Program-made: the position numbers and the translations under genes
In this document: positions 1 through 10,731 of the stretch, in pieces
Layout: the number at the start of each line of letters is the position of its first letter
Position numbering within the stretch: the stretch's first letter is position 1
DNA from: Octopus sinensis
Lineage: Eukaryota
NCBI RefSeq assembly: GCF_006345805.1
Contig: NW_021832674.1
Span: forward strand, 1-29,724
Reading direction: 5' to 3'
Length of the DNA stretch: 29,724 bases
Notes under the pieces: generated by a model
Told to the model about the DNA's origin: nothing
Seen by the model: the letters and a program-made list of their open reading frames with translations, nothing else
The model's database searches: none

Positions 1-316
1 CCTTGTCACTGCCGCCTGACTGGTTCCCTGTGCCGCTGGCACGTAAAAAGCACCATCCGAATGTGGTCGATGCCAGCCCCCACCCCGACTGGCTCCTGTG
101 TCGGTGGCACGTAAAAAGCACCCACCACACTCTCGGAGTGGTTGGCATTAGGAATGGCATACATATGTGGAAACCTTGCCAGATCACATTGGAGCCTGGC
201 GCAGCCTACTGCCTTGCCAGTGAAATCGTCCGACCCATGCTACTATAAAAACGGACGTTAAACGATGATGATGAGGAGGAGAATGATAATGATGATGATG
301 ATGATGATGATGATGA
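1..316 (+). mobile_element. 3' end of RTE-type retroelement with (GAT)n tail
   Basis: Subrepeats gtgccggtggcacgtaaaaagcacc and terminal cggacgttaaa(cgat)(gat)n; same sequence as at 2560, 3440, 5500, 7950 and 12410. Confidence 0.75.
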
Positions 317-567
317 GTTCTGTGACCAAATGACAAAATTAACTCTATTGTGTCTTCTAATTTGAACATTATTACCAACAGCATTAACCTCAATGGGTAT
401 TTCATAAACTCTCAGTAAATCGATATCTTTAATTCAATTTTTATACAGATAATTGTTCAATTGGAAAATAGGAATGGAAGCTGTTTTCAGTTATTCTTTC
501 AAGCACAATATACTCGGGGGAAGAAAACCTTACAGAAATCAATTGGGAACTATTATTTTATACTCAC

Positions 568-645
568 CAATTGCCTGAGATGCAGCCCCTAATTCCTGAC
601 ATGTAGCCTCTGTTTGAACACACCTGTCCTCAAACTTTGGAGCCC
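568..645 (-). CDS. Exon C copy (last in this window; the array probably continues left of base 1)
   Basis: Intact splice sites, 78 nt; same peptide as 4102-4179, with one synonymous Val change (GTT vs GTA). Confidence 0.68.
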
Positions 646-1310
646 CTGAAATAAATATTTCCAAGTTTTACATTTGATATTAAAATGTCTGTATCTTTAT
701 TTTTATTAATCTCTATCTTGTTATTGTGAGACATTCAATTCCTGTCGTTACTGTTCAACCTTTGACCATTATGGTTTTGGTCAATATTTCTGTACTTTCT
801 ACAGTGGTCCCATGTAATAGCCCAATGTTTCCACAATAAAACAGACTAACATTCCTAAATCCACCCTCTCTCTCTCTCTCTCTCTCTCTCTAGAAACACA
901 TTAAATATTCTAACAATGTTGCAATTATCTCATTTAATTAACACTTGAAAACAGTTTTCTCTTAGCATTGTCTTTCTTTTCTTATAACTGCCAAATCTAT
1001 GGCATGGCACTGTCTTCTTATCTTTAGAATTCACTAATCAACATTCCTCTCTAATTAAGTAAAACTGAGGCCATTAAGACATGTTCTTTATGTGCATACC
1101 CTCCACCCCGCACACAATCTGTCCCCTAAAAATCATCTCCACAAGCCAAATTCCATACACCCTTCCCCAACATGATCCCTAACAATGTGTAAAATTTAAG
1201 GTGAGGGTACACGATGTTCCTATGACAAAATAAGTTTACATTTCAGACATACAAATGTAAGAGAGTTAATGAATTATAGCTTATTAATTATCATGATAAT
1301 TGGGTATATA

Positions 1311-1877
1311 CACTACCGTCAGAAATTAATTAGCACCCTTGATTTGCCTACCATGAAGCATGGTGGGGGTGGTCTGATGGTGTGAGGGGCGTTCAGCTAC
1401 AGTTGTGTTGGGCGGCTCTATGCCGTCTAAGGCAACATCAACGCAGCAAAGTACATTGAGATAGTACGGGATACCTCTTTGGTGGCGAGGAGTACGTGCT
1501 GGCCAGTCACCTGACCTGAACCCTATTGAGAACCTCTGGAGTCGATTGGGTAGGGATTTGAATGTGCAGCAATACAGGAACCGACACGAGCTGTTTGGGG
1601 CACTTCTTGCTGCATGAGGGGCCGTCCCTGCACAGTACCTGCAGGCACTCATAGACAGCATGCCGACCCGCGTAGCAGCTGTCATTGCTGCCAAAGGAGG
1701 GGCAACAAGATATTGACTAAATTTCACGATTAATATCAATTATGTGGTGTGCTGGGATATGTTTTAATAAATTTTTGATTAAAAACGAGTTCGTTTCTGA
1801 TAATAAGTTAATTAAATTAAGAAAATGTAAGAAAATATAGAAATTTGAGAAGTGCTAATTAATTTCCGACGCAAGTG
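1311..1877 (+). mobile_element. Internally deleted Tc1/mariner (Tc1-type) DNA transposon, 567 bp
   Basis: TA duplication at 1309-1310 and 1878-1879; 26-bp TIRs CACTACCGTCAGAAATTAATTAGCAC (23/26 match). Transposase remnants KHGGGGLMV*GAFS and SPDLNPIENLW...SMPTRVAAVIAAKGGATRY*. Empty site seen in the sister units. Confidence 0.95.
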
Positions 1878-2127
1878 TATGTGATACAATGGCACTGTGC
1901 TTAACGGTGCAATACTAGATATCAATATAGATTGTATATAATCTGAGTAAAGAACATATAACCTACATTACTATGAATATGATTGTGTCTCAGCACAGCT
2001 AATATTATGGTAGTTCCATGAGCAAACGAAGAAAGATATAACCAAGTCCACTGCCAAATACTAATGATTAATTCATTTCCTGGTCAAATAACAATGACTA
2101 TCTTTCATTAAATAATTTGAACGCAAC

Positions 2128-2951
2128 GATGTCAGTGTGTACACAAGGCAGAGTGAAGAGGCCTGAGAGAAGTGTTAGACATAAGAAGCATCAGATGTGG
2201 TGTACAAGAGAGACAACTGCACTGGTATGGTCATGTGTATGGATGAGGAGAGCTGTGGGAAGAAGTGTTACACCCTAACAGTGGAAGGAACCCGTGGAAA
2301 GGAGTGGCCCAGGAAGACAGGGGATGACGTAGTGAAACGACCTTCGAACGTTGGGCCTCACAGAGGTAATGGCAAGAGACAGAGACCTCTAGAAATATGA
2401 TGTAATTAAGAGGACTCGGCAAGTGAAGTGAGATCAGAGCTGTAGCATATACCAGTGGTGCATAACCAGCCCCTTTTAAAAGTACCCTTGAATCACAGAG
2501 TGATAAGTTGCGCTTGAGAAGAATTTCCGAGTCAAGTAAAACCGAAAACCAGAAATCACAAATCAAAATCAAATCTAGATCGAAATCAAAATGCAAATTG
2601 TAATCATGGCTGATGCCAGAGCCGCCTGGCTTCCACCCGTGCCGGTGGCACGTAATAAGTACCATTCAAACATTGTTTGTTGCCAGTGCCGCCTGACTGG
2701 TTCCCTGTGCCGTTGGCACGTAAAAAGCACCATCCGAACATGGTCGATGCCAGCCCCAACTTCAACTGGCTCCTGTGTCGGTGGCACGTAAAAATCACCC
2801 ACCATACTCTCGGAGTGGTTGGCGTTAGGAATGGCAAACATATGTGGAAACCTTGCCAGATCACTTTGGAGCCTGGCGCAGCCTACTGCCTTGCCAGTGA
2901 AATCATCCAATCCATGCCACCATAAAAAACTGACGTTAAACGATTGTGATG
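2128..2951 (+). mobile_element. 5'-truncated RTE-clade LINE: ORF C-terminus plus 3' UTR
   Basis: Decayed LHWYGHV...KKCYTLTVEGTRGKEWPRKTGDDVVK (RTE-like WYGHV...GRPRKTW), followed by an aatcaa-rich stretch, ~65-bp subrepeats and the tail. Confidence 0.75.
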
Positions 2952-3114
2952 TTTTATTAAACTCTATCTTGTTATTGTGAGACATTCAATTTCTGTCGTT
3001 AATGGTCAAATGTTGACCACTATGGTTTTGGTCAACAACAATAACAATAACCTATCAGAAAACTCAGGAAAGACCTTAGTAGTAAAAGAAACAAAAATCT
3101 TTCTCGTTACTCAC

Positions 3115-3154
3115 CTATTTACAAATAAACAACAAAATGTTTTAGTTCTCTGTC
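3115..3154 (-). other. Orphan copy of microexon A (partner B deleted)
   Basis: 40 nt, TAG acceptor and GTgagt donor, QRTKTFCCLFVN. Sequence left of ~3035 switches to an exon-C intron fragment, so B is absent. Confidence 0.4.
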
Positions 3155-3263
3155 CTAAAAGACATCATTAACTCTATTATGTCTTCTTATTAACCATTTT
3201 ACCACCACGTTAACCTTGATTTTATGAAATTTCAGTGGAATATTTAATAGAATCCTTTTTACA

Positions 3264-3849
3264 GCTAATGCGGAAACTAGGGATTGACGAGCGATTATAA
3301 GAGTTGAAGAGGCCCTGTAGTAAGGTGAGGATCGGCAATGAGTATAGTGAAGAATTCCGGATAGAAGTAGGAGTTCACTAGGGATCATTCCTAAACCCCT
3401 CGTTTTCATCATAGTCCACCAGGCAATAAGAGAAATGACAAATCAAAAGCAATTCAAGATCGAAATCAAAATGGAAATTGTAGTTGTGACCGATGCCAGT
3501 GCCGCCTGGCTGGCAACTGTTCCTGTGTCACGTTATAAGTACCATAGAAGCATAGGTCCTTGTCACTGCCGTCTGACTAGTTCCCTGTGCCGGTGGCACG
3601 TAAAAAGCACCATCCGAACGTGGTCGATGCCAGCCCCCACCCCGACTGGCTCCTGTGTCGGTGGCAAGTAAAAGGCACCCACCACACTCTCGGAGTGGTT
3701 GGCATTAGGAATGGGATACATATGTGGAAACCTTGCCAGATCACTTTGGAGCCTGGCGCAGCCTACTGCCTTGCCAGTGAAATCGTCCGACCCATGCCTC
3801 CATAAGAAACGGATGTTAAATGATGATGATGATGATGATGATGATGATG
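3264..3849 (+). mobile_element. Internally deleted RTE-clade LINE: RT fragment fused to 3' UTR and (GAT)n tail
   Basis: Remnant MRKLGIDE...SKVRIGNEYSEEFRIEVGVH*GSFL (RT QG-x-x-LSP region). Confidence 0.75.
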
Positions 3850-4101
3850 CGTTCTCTGACCAAATGACAAAATTAACTCTATTGTGTCTTCTAATTTGAA
3901 CATTATTACCAACAGCATTAACCTCAATGGGTATTTCATAAACTCACAGTAAATCGATATCTTTAATACAATTATTATACAGATAATTGTTCAATTGGAA
4001 AATAGGAATGGAAGCTGTTTTCAGTTATTCTTTCAAGCACAATATACTCGGGGGAAGAAAACCTTACAGAAATCAATTGGGAACTATTATTTTATACTCA
4101 C

Positions 4102-4179
4102 CAATTGCCTGAGATGCAGCCCCTAATTCCTGACATGTAGCCTCTGTTTGTACACACCTGTCCTCAAACTTTGGAGCCC
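4102..4179 (-). CDS. Exon C copy
   Basis: Intact splice sites, 78 nt, phase 1 to 1: APKFEDRCVQTEATCQELGAASQAI. Confidence 0.68.
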
Positions 4180-5079
4180 CTGAAATAAATATTTCCAAGT
4201 TTTACATTTAAAAAGAAACTTTCTTTATCTTTATTTTTATTAAACTCTATCTTGTTATTGTGAGACATTCAATTTCTGTCGTTAATGGTCAAATGTTGAC
4301 CATTATGGTTTTGGTCAATATTTCTGTACTTTCTACATTGGTCCCATGTAATAGCCCAATATGAAACAATAAAACAGACTAACATTTCTATATCCACCCT
4401 CTCTCTCTCTAAAAACACATTAAATATTCTAACAATGTTGCAATTATCTCATTTAATTAACACTTGATAACAGTTTTCTCTTAGCTTTGTCTTTCTTTTC
4501 TTATAACTGTGCCAAATCTATGGCATGGCACAGTCCTCTCATCTCTAGAATTCACTAATCAACATTCCTCTCTAATTAAGTAAAACTGAGCCCATAAAGA
4601 CATGTCCTTTATGTGCACACCCCCCACCCCGCACACAATCTGTCCCCTAAAAATCATCTCCACAAGCCAAATTCCATACACCCTTCCCCAACATGATCCC
4701 TAACAAGGTGTAAAATGTTAGGTGAGGGTACACGAGGTCCCTATGACAAAATCAGTTTACATTTCAGACATACAAATGTAAGAGAGTTAATGAATTATAG
4801 CTTATTAATTATCATGATAATTGGGTATATATGTGATACAATGGCACTGTGCTTGACGGTGCAATACTAGATATCAATATAGATTGTATATAATCTGAGT
4901 AAAGAACATATAGCCTTCATTACTATGAATATGATTGTGTCTCAGCACAGCTAATATTATGGTAGTTCCATGAGCAAACGAAGAAAGATATAACCAAGTC
5001 CACTGCCAAATACTAATGACTAATTCATTTCCCGGTCAAATAACAATGACTAACTTCCATTAAATAATTTGAACGCAAC

Positions 5080-5920
5080 GATGTCAGTGTGTACACAAGG
5101 CAGAGTGAAGAGGCCTGAGAGAAGTGTTAGACATAAGAAGCATCAGATGTGGTGTACAAGAGAGACAATTGCACTGGTGTGGTCATGTGTATGGATGAGG
5201 AGTGCTGTGGGAAGAAGCGTTACACCCTAACAGTGGAAGGAACCCGTGGAAAGGGGTGACCCAGGAAGACAGGGCATGACGTGGTGAAACGACCTTCGAA
5301 CGTTGGGCCTCACAGAGGTAATGGCAAGAGACAGAGACCTCTGGAAATATGATGTGATTAAGAGGACCTGGCGAGTGAAGTGAGATCACAGCTGTAGCCT
5401 ATACCAGGGGCGCATAACCAGCCCTTTTTAAAAGTACCCTTGAATCACAGAGTGATAAGTTGCGCTTGAGAAGAATTTCTGAGTCAAGTAAAACCAAAAA
5501 TCAGAAATCACAAATCAAAATCAAATTAAGATCGAAATCAAAATGGAAATTGTAGTTGTGACCGATGCCAGTGCCGCCTGACTGGCACCTGTTCCTGTGT
5601 CACGTTATAAGTACCATAGAAGCATAGGTCCTTGTCACTGCCACCTGACTGGTTCCCTGTGCCGGTGGCACGTAAAAAGCACCATCCGAACGTGGTCGAT
5701 GCCAGCCCCCACCCCGACTGACTCCTGTGCCGGTGGCTCGTAAAAGGCACCCACCACACTCTCGGAGTGGTTGGCGTTAGGAATGGCATACATATGTGGA
5801 AACCTTGCCAGATCACATTGCAGCCTGGCGCAGCCTACTGCCTTGCCAGTGAAATCGTCCGACCCATGCCGCCATAAGAAACGGATGTTAAATGATGGGG
5901 TGATGATGATGATGATGATG
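5080..5920 (+). mobile_element. 5'-truncated RTE-clade LINE (duplicate of 2128-2951)
   Basis: Near-identical sequence and the same junction gaacgcaac|gatgtcag. Confidence 0.75.
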
Positions 5921-6174
5921 CGTTCTCTGACCAAATGACAAATTTAATTAACTTATTGTGTCTTCTAATTTGAACATTATTACCAACAGCATTAACCTAA
6001 TGGGTATATTAAACTCACCAGTAAATCGATATCTTTAATTACAATTATTATACAAGATAATTGTTCAATTGGAAAATAGAATGGAAGCTCTGTTTCAGTT
6101 ATTCTTTCAAGCACAATATACTCGGGGAAGAAAACCTTACAGAAATCAATTGGGAACTATTATTTTATACTCAC

Positions 6175-6252
6175 AATTGCCTGAGATGCAGCCCCTAATT
6201 CCTGACATGTTAGCCTCTGTTTGTACACACCTGTCCTCACACTTTGGAGCCC
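6175..6252 (-). CDS. Exon C copy with compensating +1/-1 indels
   Basis: Still 78 nt and open between CAG and GTgagt: APKCEDRCVQTEANMSGIRGCISGN. Confidence 0.55.
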
Positions 6253-7510
6253 CTGAAATAAATATTTCCAAGTTTTACATTTAAAAAGAAACTTCTTATC
6301 TTTATTTTTATTAAACTCTATTTGTTATGTGAGACATTCAATTTCTGTCGTTAATGGTCAAATGTTGACCACTATGGTTTTGGTCAATATTTCTGTACTT
6401 TCTACAGTGGTCCCATTGTATAGCCCAATATGTCCACAATAAAAAGACTAACATTTTAAATCCACCCTCACTTCTGTCTCTCTCTCTCTCCTCTCTCTTT
6501 AAAAACACATTAAAAATATTCTAACAATGTTGCCAATATTCATTTAATTAACACTTGATAAGAGTTTTTCTCTTAGCATTGTCTTTCTTTTCTATATAAC
6601 TGTGCCAAAACATATGGCATGGAACAGTCCTCTCATCTCTAGAATTCACTAATCAACATTCCTCTCAATTAAGTAAAACTGAGGTCATAAGATGTCCTTT
6701 ACGTGATACGCTCCATCCCACACACAATCTGTCCCTTAAAAATCATCTCAACAACATGATCCCTAACAAGATATAAGATTTAGGTGAGGGTACACGATGT
6801 CCCTATGACAAAATAAATTACATTTCATACATACAAATGTAAGAGAGTTAATGAATTATAGCTTATTAATTATCATGATAATTGGTATATATGTGATAGA
6901 ATGGCACTGTGCTTGACGGTGCAATACTAGATATCAATATAGATTGTATTAATCTGAGTAAAGAACATAACCTTCATTACAATGAATATGATTGTGTCTC
7001 AGCACAGCTAATATTATGGTAGTTCCATGAGCAAACGAAGAAAGATATAACCAAGTCACTGCCCAATACTAATGACTAATTCATTCTGGTCAAATAACAA
7101 TGACTATCTTTCATTAATAATTTGAACGCAACAATCAAGACCAAAGGGTGAAACACTCAGAAAACTGTGCCTCTTTTAGCATTAATATCATCTAAAATCT
7201 AACAAGAGTGAGAAAAAGAATGACTATATGGATGGTAAATGTTGTTCAAACAATGTAATAAGTGTATATTATATATAGTTACAACAAGGATTTGTGAGTT
7301 CAAGTCACACAGGGAACTCATATTTAATTCCTATCTTTATATTTTATGTCAACACCAATATTTGTTTAAATGTAAACATGTTCACCGTTCAATACTAAAT
7401 TTAATATTTAATCAACGTTAATGATCATTATACTTATAATCTTAGAGATTTGATTTTTAATTCTTTAATTTATAACAAAGTTATTGACCTGAGACATTCA
7501 GGGTACGTAC

Positions 7511-7539
7511 CTAAACAACATGTCATGACAGACATCTTG
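7511..7539 (-). CDS. Second copy of candidate microexon B
   Basis: Same splice sites as 9992-10020; (S)KMSVMTCCL, open, CCL retained. Confidence 0.38.
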
Positions 7540-7631
7540 CTACATAAAAACAACAACAATAACCTATCAGAAAAATTTGGAAAGGACCTTAGTAGAAAAG
7601 AAAAGAAACAAAATCTTTCTCGTTACCTCAC

Positions 7632-7670
7632 CTGTTTACAAATAAACAACAAAATGTTTTAGTTCTTGTC
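7632..7670 (-). pseudogene. Second copy of microexon A with a 1-nt deletion (39 nt, in-frame TAA); real decay or consensus error
   Basis: gttcttgtc versus gttctctgtc in the other copies; lies in the indel-rich segment. Confidence 0.35.
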
Positions 7671-7778
7671 CTAAAAGACATCATTAACTCTATTATGTCT
7701 TCTTATTTAAACATTTTACAACCACGTAACCCTTATTTATGAAATTTCAGTGGAATATTTAATAGAATCCTTTTTACA

Positions 7779-8359
7779 GCTAAGCGGAAACTAGGGATTG
7801 ACCGAGGCGATTATAAGAGTTGAAGAGGCCCTGTAGTAAGGTGAGGATCGGCAATGAGTATAGTGAAGATTTCGGATAGAAGTAGGAGTTCAATTAGGGA
7901 TCATTCCTGAACCCCTCGTTGTCATCATAGTCACCAGGCAATAACAGAAATGACAAATCAAAAGCAATTCAAGATCGAAATCAAAATGGAAATGTAGTTG
8001 TGACCGATGCCAGTGCCCTGACTGGCACTGTTCCTGTTGTTTCACGTTATAAGTACCATAGAAGCATAGGTTTGTTCAGTTCCGCCTGACTGGTTCCCTG
8101 TGCCGGTGGCACGTAAAAAGCACCATCCGAACGTGGTCAATGCCAGCCCCACCTCAACTGGCTCTGTGTCGGTGGCACGTAAAAGGCCCACCACACTCTC
8201 GGAGTGGTTGGCATTAGGAATGGCATACATATGTGGAAACCTTGCCAGATCACATTGGAGCCTGGCGCAGCCTACTGCCTTGCCAGTGAAATCGTCCGAC
8301 CCATGCCACCATAAGAAAAGGATGATGTTAAATGATGATGATGATGATGATGATGATGA
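7779..8359 (+). mobile_element. Internally deleted RTE-clade LINE (duplicate of 3264-3849)
   Basis: Near-identical RT fragment, UTR and (GAT)n tail. Confidence 0.75.
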
Positions 8360-8609
8360 GTTCCATGACCAAATGACAATATTAACTCTATTGTGTCTTC
8401 TAATTTGAACATTATTACCAACAGCATTAATCTCAATGGGTATTTCATAAACTCTCAGTAAATCGATATCTTTAATTCAATTTTTTAAAGATAATCGTTC
8501 AATTGGAAAATAGGAATGGAAGCTGTTTTCAGTTATTCTTTCAAGCACAATATACTCGGGGGAAGAAAACCTTACAGAAATCAATTGGGAACTATTATTT
8601 TATACTCAC

Positions 8610-8687
8610 CAATTGCCTGAGATGCAGCCCCTAATTCCTGACATATAGCCTCTGTTTGTACACACCTGTCCTCAAACTTTGGAGCCT
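8610..8687 (-). CDS. Repeated 78-nt exon C, first copy in transcription order (putative LC8-binding VQT motif)
   Basis: atttatttCAG acceptor, G|GTgagt donor; phase 1 to 1, open: APKFEDRCVQTEAICQELGAASQAI. More GC-rich than its flanks. Confidence 0.75.
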
Positions 8688-8908
8688 CTGAAATAAATAT
8701 TTCCAAGTTTTACATTTAATAATAAACTTTCTTTATCTTTATTTTTATTAAACTCTATCTTGTTATTGTGAGACATTCAATTCCTGTCGTTAATGGTCAA
8801 ATGTTGACCATTATGGTTTTGGTCAATATTTCTGTACTTTCTACAGTGGTCCCATGTAATAGCCCAATATGTCCACAATAAAACAGACTAACATTTCTAA
8901 ATCCACCA

Positions 8909-8939
<31 letters not shown>

Positions 8940-9991
8940 AGAAACACATTAAATATTCTAACAATGTTGCAATTATCTCATTTAATTAACACTTGATAAC
9001 AGTTTTCTCTTAGCTTTGTCTTTCTTTTCTTATAACTGTGCCAAATCTATGGCATGGCACAGTCCTCTCATCTCTAGAATTCACTAATCAACATTCCTCT
9101 CTAATTAAGTAAAACTGAGCCCATAAAGACATGTCCTTTATGTGTATACCCTCCACCCGCACACAATCTGTCCCCTAAAAACATCTCCACAAGCCAAATT
9201 CCATACACCCTTCCCCAACATGATCCCTAACAAGATATAAAATGTAAGGTGAGGGTACACGATGTTCCTATGACAAAATAAGTTTACATTTCATACATAC
9301 AAATGTAAGAGAGTTAATGAATTATAGCTTATTAATTATCATGATAATTGGGTATATATGTGATACAATGGCACTGTGCTTGACGGTGCAATACTAGATA
9401 TCAATATAGATTGTATATAATCTGAGTAAAGAACATATAACCTTCATTACTATGAATATGATTGTGTCTCAGCACAGCTAATATTATGGTAGTTCCATGA
9501 GCAAACGAAGAAAGATATAACCAAGTCCACTGCCAAATACTAATGATTAATTCATTTCCTGGTCAAATAACAATGACTAACTTCCATTAAATAATTTGAA
9601 CGCAACAATCAAGACCAAAGGGTGAAACACTCAGAAAACTGTGCCTCTTTTAGCATTAATATCATCTAAAATCTAACAAGAGTGAGAAAAAGAATGACTA
9701 TATGGATGGTAAATGTTGTTCAAACAATGTAATAAGTGTATATTATATATAGTTACAAACAAGGATTTGTGAGATCAAGTCACACAGGGAACTCATATTT
9801 AATTCCTATCTTTATATTTTATGTCAACACCAATATTTTGTTTAAATGTAAACAGATGTTCACCGTTCAATACTAAATTTAATATTTAATCAACGTTAAT
9901 GATCATTATACTTATAATCTTAGAGATTTGATTTTTAATTTCTTTAATTTATAACAAAGTTATTCTGACCTGAGACATTCAGGGTACGTAC

Positions 9992-10020
9992 CTAAACAAC
10001 ATATCCTGACAGACATCTGG
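9992..10020 (-). CDS. Candidate 29-nt microexon 'B'
   Basis: ttgttgttgttatgTAG acceptor, TAG|GTacgt donor; phase 2 to 1: (S)QMSVRICCL. 40+29=69 nt, separated from A by a 90-nt intron. Confidence 0.45.
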
Positions 10021-10110
10021 CTACATAACAACAACAACAACAATAAACTATCAGAAAACTTAGGAAAGACCTTAGTAGCAAAAGAAACAAAATCTTTCTC
10101 GTTAACTCAC

Positions 10111-10150
10111 CTGTTTACAAATAAACAACAAACTATTTTAGTTCTCTGTC
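10111..10150 (-). CDS. Candidate 40-nt microexon 'A'
   Basis: tgtctttTAG acceptor, CAG|GTgagt donor; phase 1 to 2: QRTKIVCCLFVN. Restores frame only together with exon B. Confidence 0.45.
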
Positions 10151-10369
10151 CTAAAAGACATCATTAACTCTATAATGTCTTCTTATTTATCCATTTTACC
10201 AACCACGTTAACCTTGATTTTATGAAATTTCAGTGGAATATTTAATAGAATCCTTTTACACCTAATCTTACAAATAGAAATTAAGAACGGAACTTGTTCT
10301 CGATCAGCCTGACAAGCAAAATCCCTGAGGCGAAGATAAATGCTATAGAAATCTATAAAATACTGTTGT

Positions 10370-10680
10370 GGATGTGCAACGGCCAGTGGTTAGGGCAGTG
10401 GACTCGCGGTTGTAGGATCGCGGTTTCGATTCCCAGACCGGGCGTTGTGAGTGTTTATTGAGCGAAAACTCCTAAAGTTCCACAAGGCTCCGGCGGGGGG
10501 TTGTAGCGATCCCTGCTGTTCACTTTCTCCACAACTTTCTCTCACTCTTTCTTCTGTTGGCCTGCTCGCTTAGCCAGCGGGGTGGCGCCACTTGAAGGCT
10601 AACTCAATGCGAAGCGCATTGTAACCAGCGATGTGTAGCAACATCTGATAGCCTGGTCGGTCACAGTGATAACGGTGATA
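10370..10680 (+). mobile_element. tRNA-derived SINE
   Basis: tRNA-like head with A-box-like ggccagtggttagg and B-box-like ggtttcgattcc; tail ...ctggtcggtcacagtgata. A 3' fragment of the same family lies at ~18225-18310. Confidence 0.75.
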
Positions 10681-10731
10681 AGGTACTGTTAATTTATAGA
10701 AATCTATAAGGTACTTTTAATTTATACTCAC

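Follow-up and report, generated by a model that had tools for sequence, protein, structure and literature searches.

The 29,724-nucleotide (nt) contig NW_021832674.1 of Octopus sinensis, analysed over its full length (hereafter the window), carries on its minus strand part of a gene for a protein with ankyrin repeats and a RING domain and, behind the RING exon, a tandem array with four copies of a 78-nt exon, here called exon C. The four segments are spliced exons, in the window gene or in close paralogues, and each of them encodes the sequence EDRCVQTE, a predicted binding motif for the dynein light chain LC8. The reading that we put forward, and hold to be somewhat probable, is that 26-residue exons form a spliced array within the linker of an ankyrin-RING-(death domain) protein, and that this array would serve as an LC8 ladder acting on the pairing of the RING domains. 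The exon array itself is real, and an LC8 ladder is likely.

The exon C array and its splicing

The window is the entire contig C9145 of genome G000, and four copies of exon C are a minimum for this reason; the gene is cut at both ends, and its 3' end is missing. The segments with which the argument begins are the following:

8610..8687, minus strand: exon C, copy 1 (APKFEDRCVQTEAICQELGAASQAI), with RING-C and C-C joins
6175..6252, minus strand: exon C, copy 2, motif intact, with a compensated +1/-1 shift in its second half
4102..4179, minus strand: exon C, copy 3
568..645, minus strand: exon C, copy 4; beyond it lie 567 nt up to the end of the contig, with no death-domain exon among them
1..10265, minus strand: tandem array of 2-2.5 kb intron-exon units (self-blastn, feature map)
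12124..12266, minus strand: C3HC4 RING exon, IAP-like, ending in R-E-F and a phase-1 donor (zf-C3HC4_3, E 4.6e-8)
10732..10782, minus strand: segment D, 51 nt, which resembles an exon and belongs to the module family of exon C; it has lost the anchor (KEAKM) and is apparently skipped

All four copies are found where the original prediction had placed them, each of 78 nt with an acceptor (tatttatttcag) and a donor (gtgagtat), the flanks being identical in 4/4; all four stay open after a 2-nt phase-1 start, are of phase 1-1 and encode EDRCVQTE. The proposed match in phase with the RING exon also holds, that exon ending in a phase-1 donor. The likeness of the segments is not a matter of chance, because they are embedded in 2-2.5 kb units that are 87-94% alike (self-blastn) and that all contain an (ATC)n run besides a short interspersed repeat; a further partial unit at about 2550-3270 is without the exon. 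In the copy at 6175-6252 one extra base after the motif and one missing base at the end place the second half in another frame (ANMSGIRGCISGN). This shift may be a consensus error, since the unit around it is rich in single-base gaps (17-20 relative to the other units, as against 0-6 among the others).

Splicing was analysed by aligning contigs of four runs to positions 8400-15200 of the window at 90% likeness, and runs X9 and X24, which like the other runs are not registered as RNA, were tentatively taken as such on the strength of their splice joins. In X9 a loose end at 12124 continues as the start of exon C, i.e. the RING is joined to C, and a second loose end at 8609 continues as the start of an APKC-type C copy, i.e. 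C is joined to C. A go-back joint from the end of one C to the start of another is present in both X9 and X24, which come from two studies; it has a silent difference from the window and may derive from a paralogue or an allele. Run X22 leaves exon C uncovered, and run X1, which covers introns and has no splice joint among those listed, looks like DNA. The chain RING-C-C-C-C is already present in the public model of this locus (P0004, 5'-partial), which skips D; it is this model that holds four motifs, and no single contig shows all four C exons in one transcript. The use of the segments as exons, first proposed from the letters alone, is borne out by the RING-C join (one run), the C-C join (two studies) and P0004. 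The path RING-D-C-C proposed along with it is replaced by a direct join of RING to C: no joint to D is found among the joints (15 of 26) and loose ends (24 of 622) listed, which leaves room for a rare one, and D is absent from the public gene models examined for the locus.

An assembly artefact or an unspliced intronic repeat, with a gene that ends at GKKTI* and an array outside the protein, would be one way to dismiss these exons, and public model P0011 does end at GKKTI. The contig is moreover unplaced, one of its units is rich in single-base gaps as described, and some contigs of the genome repeat the same locus (L021/22, L023/24). The RING-C and C-C joins largely refute such a gene end, which had been named among the outcomes that would overturn the prediction; arrays are also found on chromosome-scale contigs (C29), a two-repeat model exists in O. 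vulgaris (P0009), and the window units differ from each other by 38-62 substitutions per 1.25 kb. We consider the artefact scarcely conceivable.

A family of octopus ankyrin-RING-death-domain proteins

The window gene had been described as "MIB-like", and its homologues, which are named from three Octopus species, bear public names reading "MIB1/2-like". Mind bomb proteins have N-terminal Mib/Herc2, ZZ and repeat domains and one or more RINGs at the C-terminus, and they are not known to have a death domain. In the octopus proteins Pfam identified ankyrin repeats and a C3HC4 RING (zf-C3HC4_3), together with a death domain in P0015 (E 1.5e-10) and, more weakly, in P0016, and gave no match to the Mind bomb N-terminal domains (Mib/Herc2, ZZ, repeats) in 8/8 proteins, including the Met-initiated P0007, P0010 and P0015. 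The order in the paralogues is ankyrin repeats, RING, linker and death domain, with two to four C repeats ahead of the death domain in models P0009, P0055 and P0216; the death exons of the window gene itself would lie past the contig end. The family thus resembles MIB1/MIB2 in its ankyrin repeats followed by a zf-C3HC4_3 RING, but has a single RING that is not C-terminal and is followed by a linker and a death domain. Judged by this domain composition, the window gene is not a Mind bomb gene, the earlier label does not apply to it, and many octopus "MIB1/2-like" entries belong to a separate ANK-RING-Death family.

The C-terminal domain of the paralogues matches the death domains of RIPK1, PIDD and ankyrins (E 1.5e-9 to 3e-7). 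Unlike in those proteins, the order ANK-RING-linker-Death is seen only in octopus entries, which make up 33/33 hits of a RING-linker-Death profile (7999 candidates scored; this is weak evidence of absence elsewhere). Among the results listed by our literature search, outside of which most subscription journals lay, there was no work that describes this family or exon duplication as a source of LC8 motifs. The family has many members: queries with single RINGs led to 23, 44, 85 and 57 overlapping places in G000, and an exon C query to 126 candidates, 40 of them scored at 97-100%. Many of the loci are on unplaced contigs, including some that repeat one locus as mentioned above. On C29 (about 13.056-13.063 Mb; L010:9250-10000 and L011:1-5550) at least 10 whole or partial copies of the RING exon stand in tandem within 7 kb, adjoining a run of short ankyrin-exon fragments, so that here the RING exon itself has been amplified.

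The eight zinc ligands of the RING (C194, C197, C209, H211, C215, C218, C227 and C230) are invariant or nearly so, and the nearest solved RING structures are those of cIAP2 and cIAP1; MUL1 is matched as well. The tail of the window RING reads R238-x-F240, which, past the end of the aligned region, would stand about one residue off the cIAP register. The likeness to IAP-type RINGs (cIAP1/2, XIAP, BIRC7) and MUL1 lies in these structure matches and in the R-x-F after the last zinc ligands, which recalls R614 and F616 of cIAP1; the octopus proteins differ in that they have no BIR domains, an internal RING, and His for Arg after the last CxxC. The cIAP1 RING needs to dimerise, with R614 and F616 acting in trans (PMC6349121). 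In one RING subfamily (L026, L030, L036, L014) an Asp replaces the zinc-binding His (PCGDL), yet near-identical C units follow behind it.

The remaining exons of the gene within the window lie upstream of the RING exon:

29027..29182, minus strand: ankyrin-repeat exon, bounds approximate, the first exon of the gene within the contig (tblastn of P0004 100%, Pfam Ank)
21367..21403, minus strand: 37-nt exon of the ankyrin region (tblastn and splice sites)
14881..15090, minus strand: ankyrin-repeat exon; a joint in run X9 (13361/14881, CT..AC) connects it with the exon that follows
13186..13361, minus strand: exon between the ankyrin repeats and the RING

The intron between the first two of these exons is occupied at 21864-28396 by a 6.5 kb (ATC)n satellite of about 2180 copies with 82% matches. 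Two further intronic features are an inverted pair at 15587-16106 and 16674-17206, about 69% alike over 550 nt and possibly an old DNA-transposon remnant, and a GC-richer stretch at 18460-19500 that, judged by eye, reads like a decayed retroelement fragment.

Origin and spread of the linker exons

Comparison of the exons makes it likely that exon C was copied from the exon with which the death domain of this family begins. Exon C can be aligned over its whole length with death exon 1 of L049 and shares with it 47/72 nt, with a 6-base insertion, and 49/58 bases of the splice flanks, and in the protein alignment PKFEDRCVQTE of exon C stands opposite PKLEERCLQDV of the death exon (BLASTP 10/25, E 6e-6). 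The motif differs at four positions (from death exon to exon C: E>D, L>V, D>T and V>E), all towards the published LC8 preferences, and a Trp kept in death exons is Ser in exon C. Linkers also contain a 72-nt VQTD type, which has the length of the death exon and is alike to C at 48/72 positions, and a degenerate 72-nt copy of the death exon. The stretch of intron ahead of exon C recurs ahead of several other short linker exons and of death exon 1. The similarity between the introns of linker and death exons is modest (0.69 vs 0.56 shuffled), and it is the colinear alignment that carries the claim of a death-exon origin. The tree of upstream introns is mostly unresolved (2/19 branches supported), and the order of events was not drawn from it; the linker exon is taken to be the copy because the death domain is an ancient fold.

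The C units have also spread among paralogues. Units 92-96% identical to the window C unit sit behind RINGs that share 11/42 or 13-14/47 residues with the window RING (26-30%), and in those loci the identity to the window, about 75% at first, reaches about 95% within the intron that follows the first linker exon. We infer from this that homologous introns have recently undergone gene conversion or exchanged sequence unequally. Linker exon types are mixed freely within models (P0026, P0082, P0228, P0233), the number of anchors per gene model ranges from 0 to 4, and so does the number of linker exons among 12 public isoform models of one gene, which are predicted models. Named paralogues of O. 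bimaculoides have arrays of their own (e.g. three VQT in P0051). Another linker exon of the same module family, situated between RING and death domain (L017:5190, protein P0236), has been extended from within by a 7-residue repeat of Ser, Thr, Pro and Gln, (STSQPxx)n. The linker type EEKGVQTV (L007:733, L012:5582, L022:1097 and others) has an acceptor and no canonical in-frame donor in 13/13 copies, with the anchor kept in 10, and is probably dead.

The predicted LC8 ladder

LC8 is described as preferring a polar residue such as Asp at position -4, Lys or Arg at -3, mid-sized residues at -1 and +1, Gln at 0, and Pro, Asp or Glu at +2 (PMC6607443). By these rules EDRCVQTE offers a favoured class at each position (D-4, R-3, V-1, Q0, T+1, E+2). 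The caveat of the original prediction that VQT is a non-canonical variant can be relaxed: VQT, TQT and SQT anchors are all attested, dissociation constants of 1-20 uM are given for VQT binders (ZFPM1 SDKGVQTP 1.6 uM, MAST1 1.7, SON 1.4, 53BP1 QT3 1 and Nup159 QT6 20), the LC8 site of gephyrin is EDKGVQCE (PMC12057147), and the sister linker exons of the octopus family have the canonical KETQT next to DKVTQT, DKASQT, DKGVQTD and DKHVQTD. We compared 17 linker exon types, one of the "types" being a variant of C. They were drawn from 103 out of 130 exons, the other 27 being death exons (13) or exons that had a frameshift or a stop or were unrelated (14). The Gln is kept in 15/17 types, the best of 15 positions, with codon positions 1-2 alike at 0.88 and position 3 at 0.62, and V-1 is kept in 11/17. 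The partner is at hand, as G000 encodes an intact LC8 (P0017). The dynein light chain family has 22 matches in G000 (L041-L048), at least 4 of which are LC8-like frames that are intact and 75-78% alike to the main LC8; some lie on unplaced contigs.

With at least two Q-anchored motifs per chain (P0004, C-C joins), the array is likely to behave as a multivalent LC8 client. Like ASCIZ/ATMIN, Nup159, the KANK1 linker, Chica and Panoramix, it places a number of 8-residue motifs with a QT anchor in a linker that is not part of a folded domain. Unlike in these clients, each octopus motif stands on its own phase 1-1 exon at a regular spacing of 26 residues, the copy number varies between 0 and 4 among paralogues and isoform models, and the exon is homologous to a death-domain exon. 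An AlphaFold2 model of P0004 has a mean predicted local distance difference test score (pLDDT) of 50, below 50 over residues 235-353 but also over most of the RING, and was built on a shallow alignment.

Several observations weigh against an LC8 ladder acting on the RING. The spliced contigs, matched at 90% likeness, may come from paralogues. T+1 is kept in only 9/17 exon types, and Gln is already present at this place in 2/5 death-exon types. The recurrence of the motif is not independent, because all linker types may descend from one copy. Among 19 well-scoring peptides 7 bound LC8, and VDRSIQTV was among those that did not (PMC6607443), a point softened, though not removed, by KANK1, in which weak LC8 sites work cooperatively (PMC12803091). 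When 20 loci were picked by their RING, a [TVS]QT exon was found within 10 kb in 6, of which 2 have no in-frame donor; of the others, 6 had exons with different anchors, 3 had a death exon but no linker exon, and 5 had none of these, in a scan that misses some exons. Anchorless variants were amplified too, in arrays of VQA, VKT and VKK units (P0058, P0061, P0023). The window RING has His where cIAP1/2 and MUL1 have Arg after the last CxxC, a position that we take to be the cationic linchpin and at which other octopus RING subfamilies keep Arg. The ubiquitin ligase activity of this RING may be weak as a consequence, the linchpin being usually cationic and variable in identity (PMC12326332).

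The variation among C copies bears on the same question. We read 62 copies from G000, at loci chosen from the best exon hits, a choice that favours intact copies. What is clearly kept among them is the splice sites: AG and GT are present in 62/62, and 8 donor sites are invariant vs 38-41% of flanking intron sites varying. The motif had been called invariant, which is true of the four copies in the window and not beyond them, where DRCVQTE is intact in 48/62 copies. The motif is changed in 11 copies (VKK in five, VQI and VQR in two each, VKT and WVQT in one each), 3 more have a gap in it, and the 18 distinct amino-acid changes on 58 sites vs 7 silent ones on 17 give a ratio (pN/pS) of about 0.74, which again speaks against the ladder. 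Anchorless arrays have been amplified too and the young copies are without clear purifying selection, which leaves the "building" of a ladder by duplication under selection unsupported. In a shuffle test, the 1477 linker residues of 23 models contained 34 [TVISL]QT anchors where shuffling gave 2.2 on average, and the remaining 7237 residues contained 3; this was not counted for selection, because the anchors share an ancestor and the set was partly pulled by a VQT-containing profile.

These data raise the alternative that recombination merely drives a spacer, in which degenerate copies of the death exon spread through the ease of recombination between homologous introns and are tolerated as a flexible in-frame linker, the LC8-like motif being the leftover of one ancestral copy and having no function today. 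The readiness with which anchorless variants were amplified, the pN/pS ratio and the several models without any linker exon (P0010, P0027) are what such a spacer would show; exon types are only 57% alike over their first 47 nt, and E/D-K/R-x-L-Q already occurs in some death exons. Set against this are the Gln, kept in nearly all types while other positions drift, the -1 residue, which toggles between V, T and S, all attested LC8 anchors, even though V to T needs two base changes, and the direction of the four motif differences from the nearest death exon. We regard the pure spacer as rather unlikely, without its being far-fetched.

If the array is an LC8 ladder, each pair of motifs would take up one LC8 dimer, and two parallel chains would be zipped together along the linker. 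Because the first motif starts 6 residues after the R-x-F tail of the RING, bound LC8 would promote a RING dimer of the kind that acts in trans in IAPs, and it would keep the two death domains next to each other. How many anchors a gene has would depend on unequal crossing-over, on gene conversion between homologous introns and on the skipping of exons, and their number can change without a break of frame because every unit is of phase 1-1; units that have lost their anchor would act as plain spacers. The number of C copies would likely tune the pairing of these proteins. Partial, graded occupancy by LC8 is plausible, because the gaps of 18 residues between motifs fall between the mid and long linkers of ASCIZ, in which linkers of 6-9 residues gave homogeneous complexes (PMC10046861).

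LC8 could also bind for a purpose other than RING dimerisation, stiffening or lengthening the linker, pre-aligning death domains for the assembly of a signalling platform, or localising the protein, with a RING that is weak or inactive. The linker does lie between RING and death domain in the paralogues, LC8 turns the disordered KANK1 linker into a rod (PMC12803091), and the window RING is without the Arg found in cIAPs. The closeness of the first motif to an IAP-like R-x-F tail argues against it, and so do the motif gaps, which exceed those of the homogeneous ASCIZ complexes (PMC10046861). This option appears improbable to us.

More improbable still is a protease tripwire, by analogy to NLRP1/CARD8, in which the conserved Gln is bait for a Gln-specific pathogen protease (3C-like proteases cut after Gln) and cleavage frees the death domain from the RING. 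Retention of Gln with a following residue that varies between T, M, V and A would agree with it, as would the place of the array, behind the RING and ahead of the death domain, in a family that is large and changes fast. Against it, units lacking the Gln (VKK, VKT, AKM) have been amplified, and the D/E-K/R-x-V/T context fits the LC8 rules in full.

As to the history behind the LC8 ladder, we propose tentatively, as an account somewhat less likely than not, that the exon at the start of the death domain was duplicated, turned by four substitutions into an LC8-binding cassette, and moved between distant paralogues as a 2-kb unit, so that the LC8 valency of an expanded ubiquitin- and death-signalling family would be varied in octopuses by copy number and splicing. 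LC8 ladders are known, and the octopus family bears on the origin of such arrays of motifs and on the control of their valency. A single genome contains the parent exon, intermediates (the 72-nt VQTD type and degenerate copies of the death exon), young copies of 78 nt and variants that are dead, and the 0-4 anchors per model form a natural series in which the number and strength of motifs could be set against the dimerisation of RING or death domains. If the proposal is true, a short linear motif would have been born from the exon of a folded domain and would serve as a dial for dimer strength.

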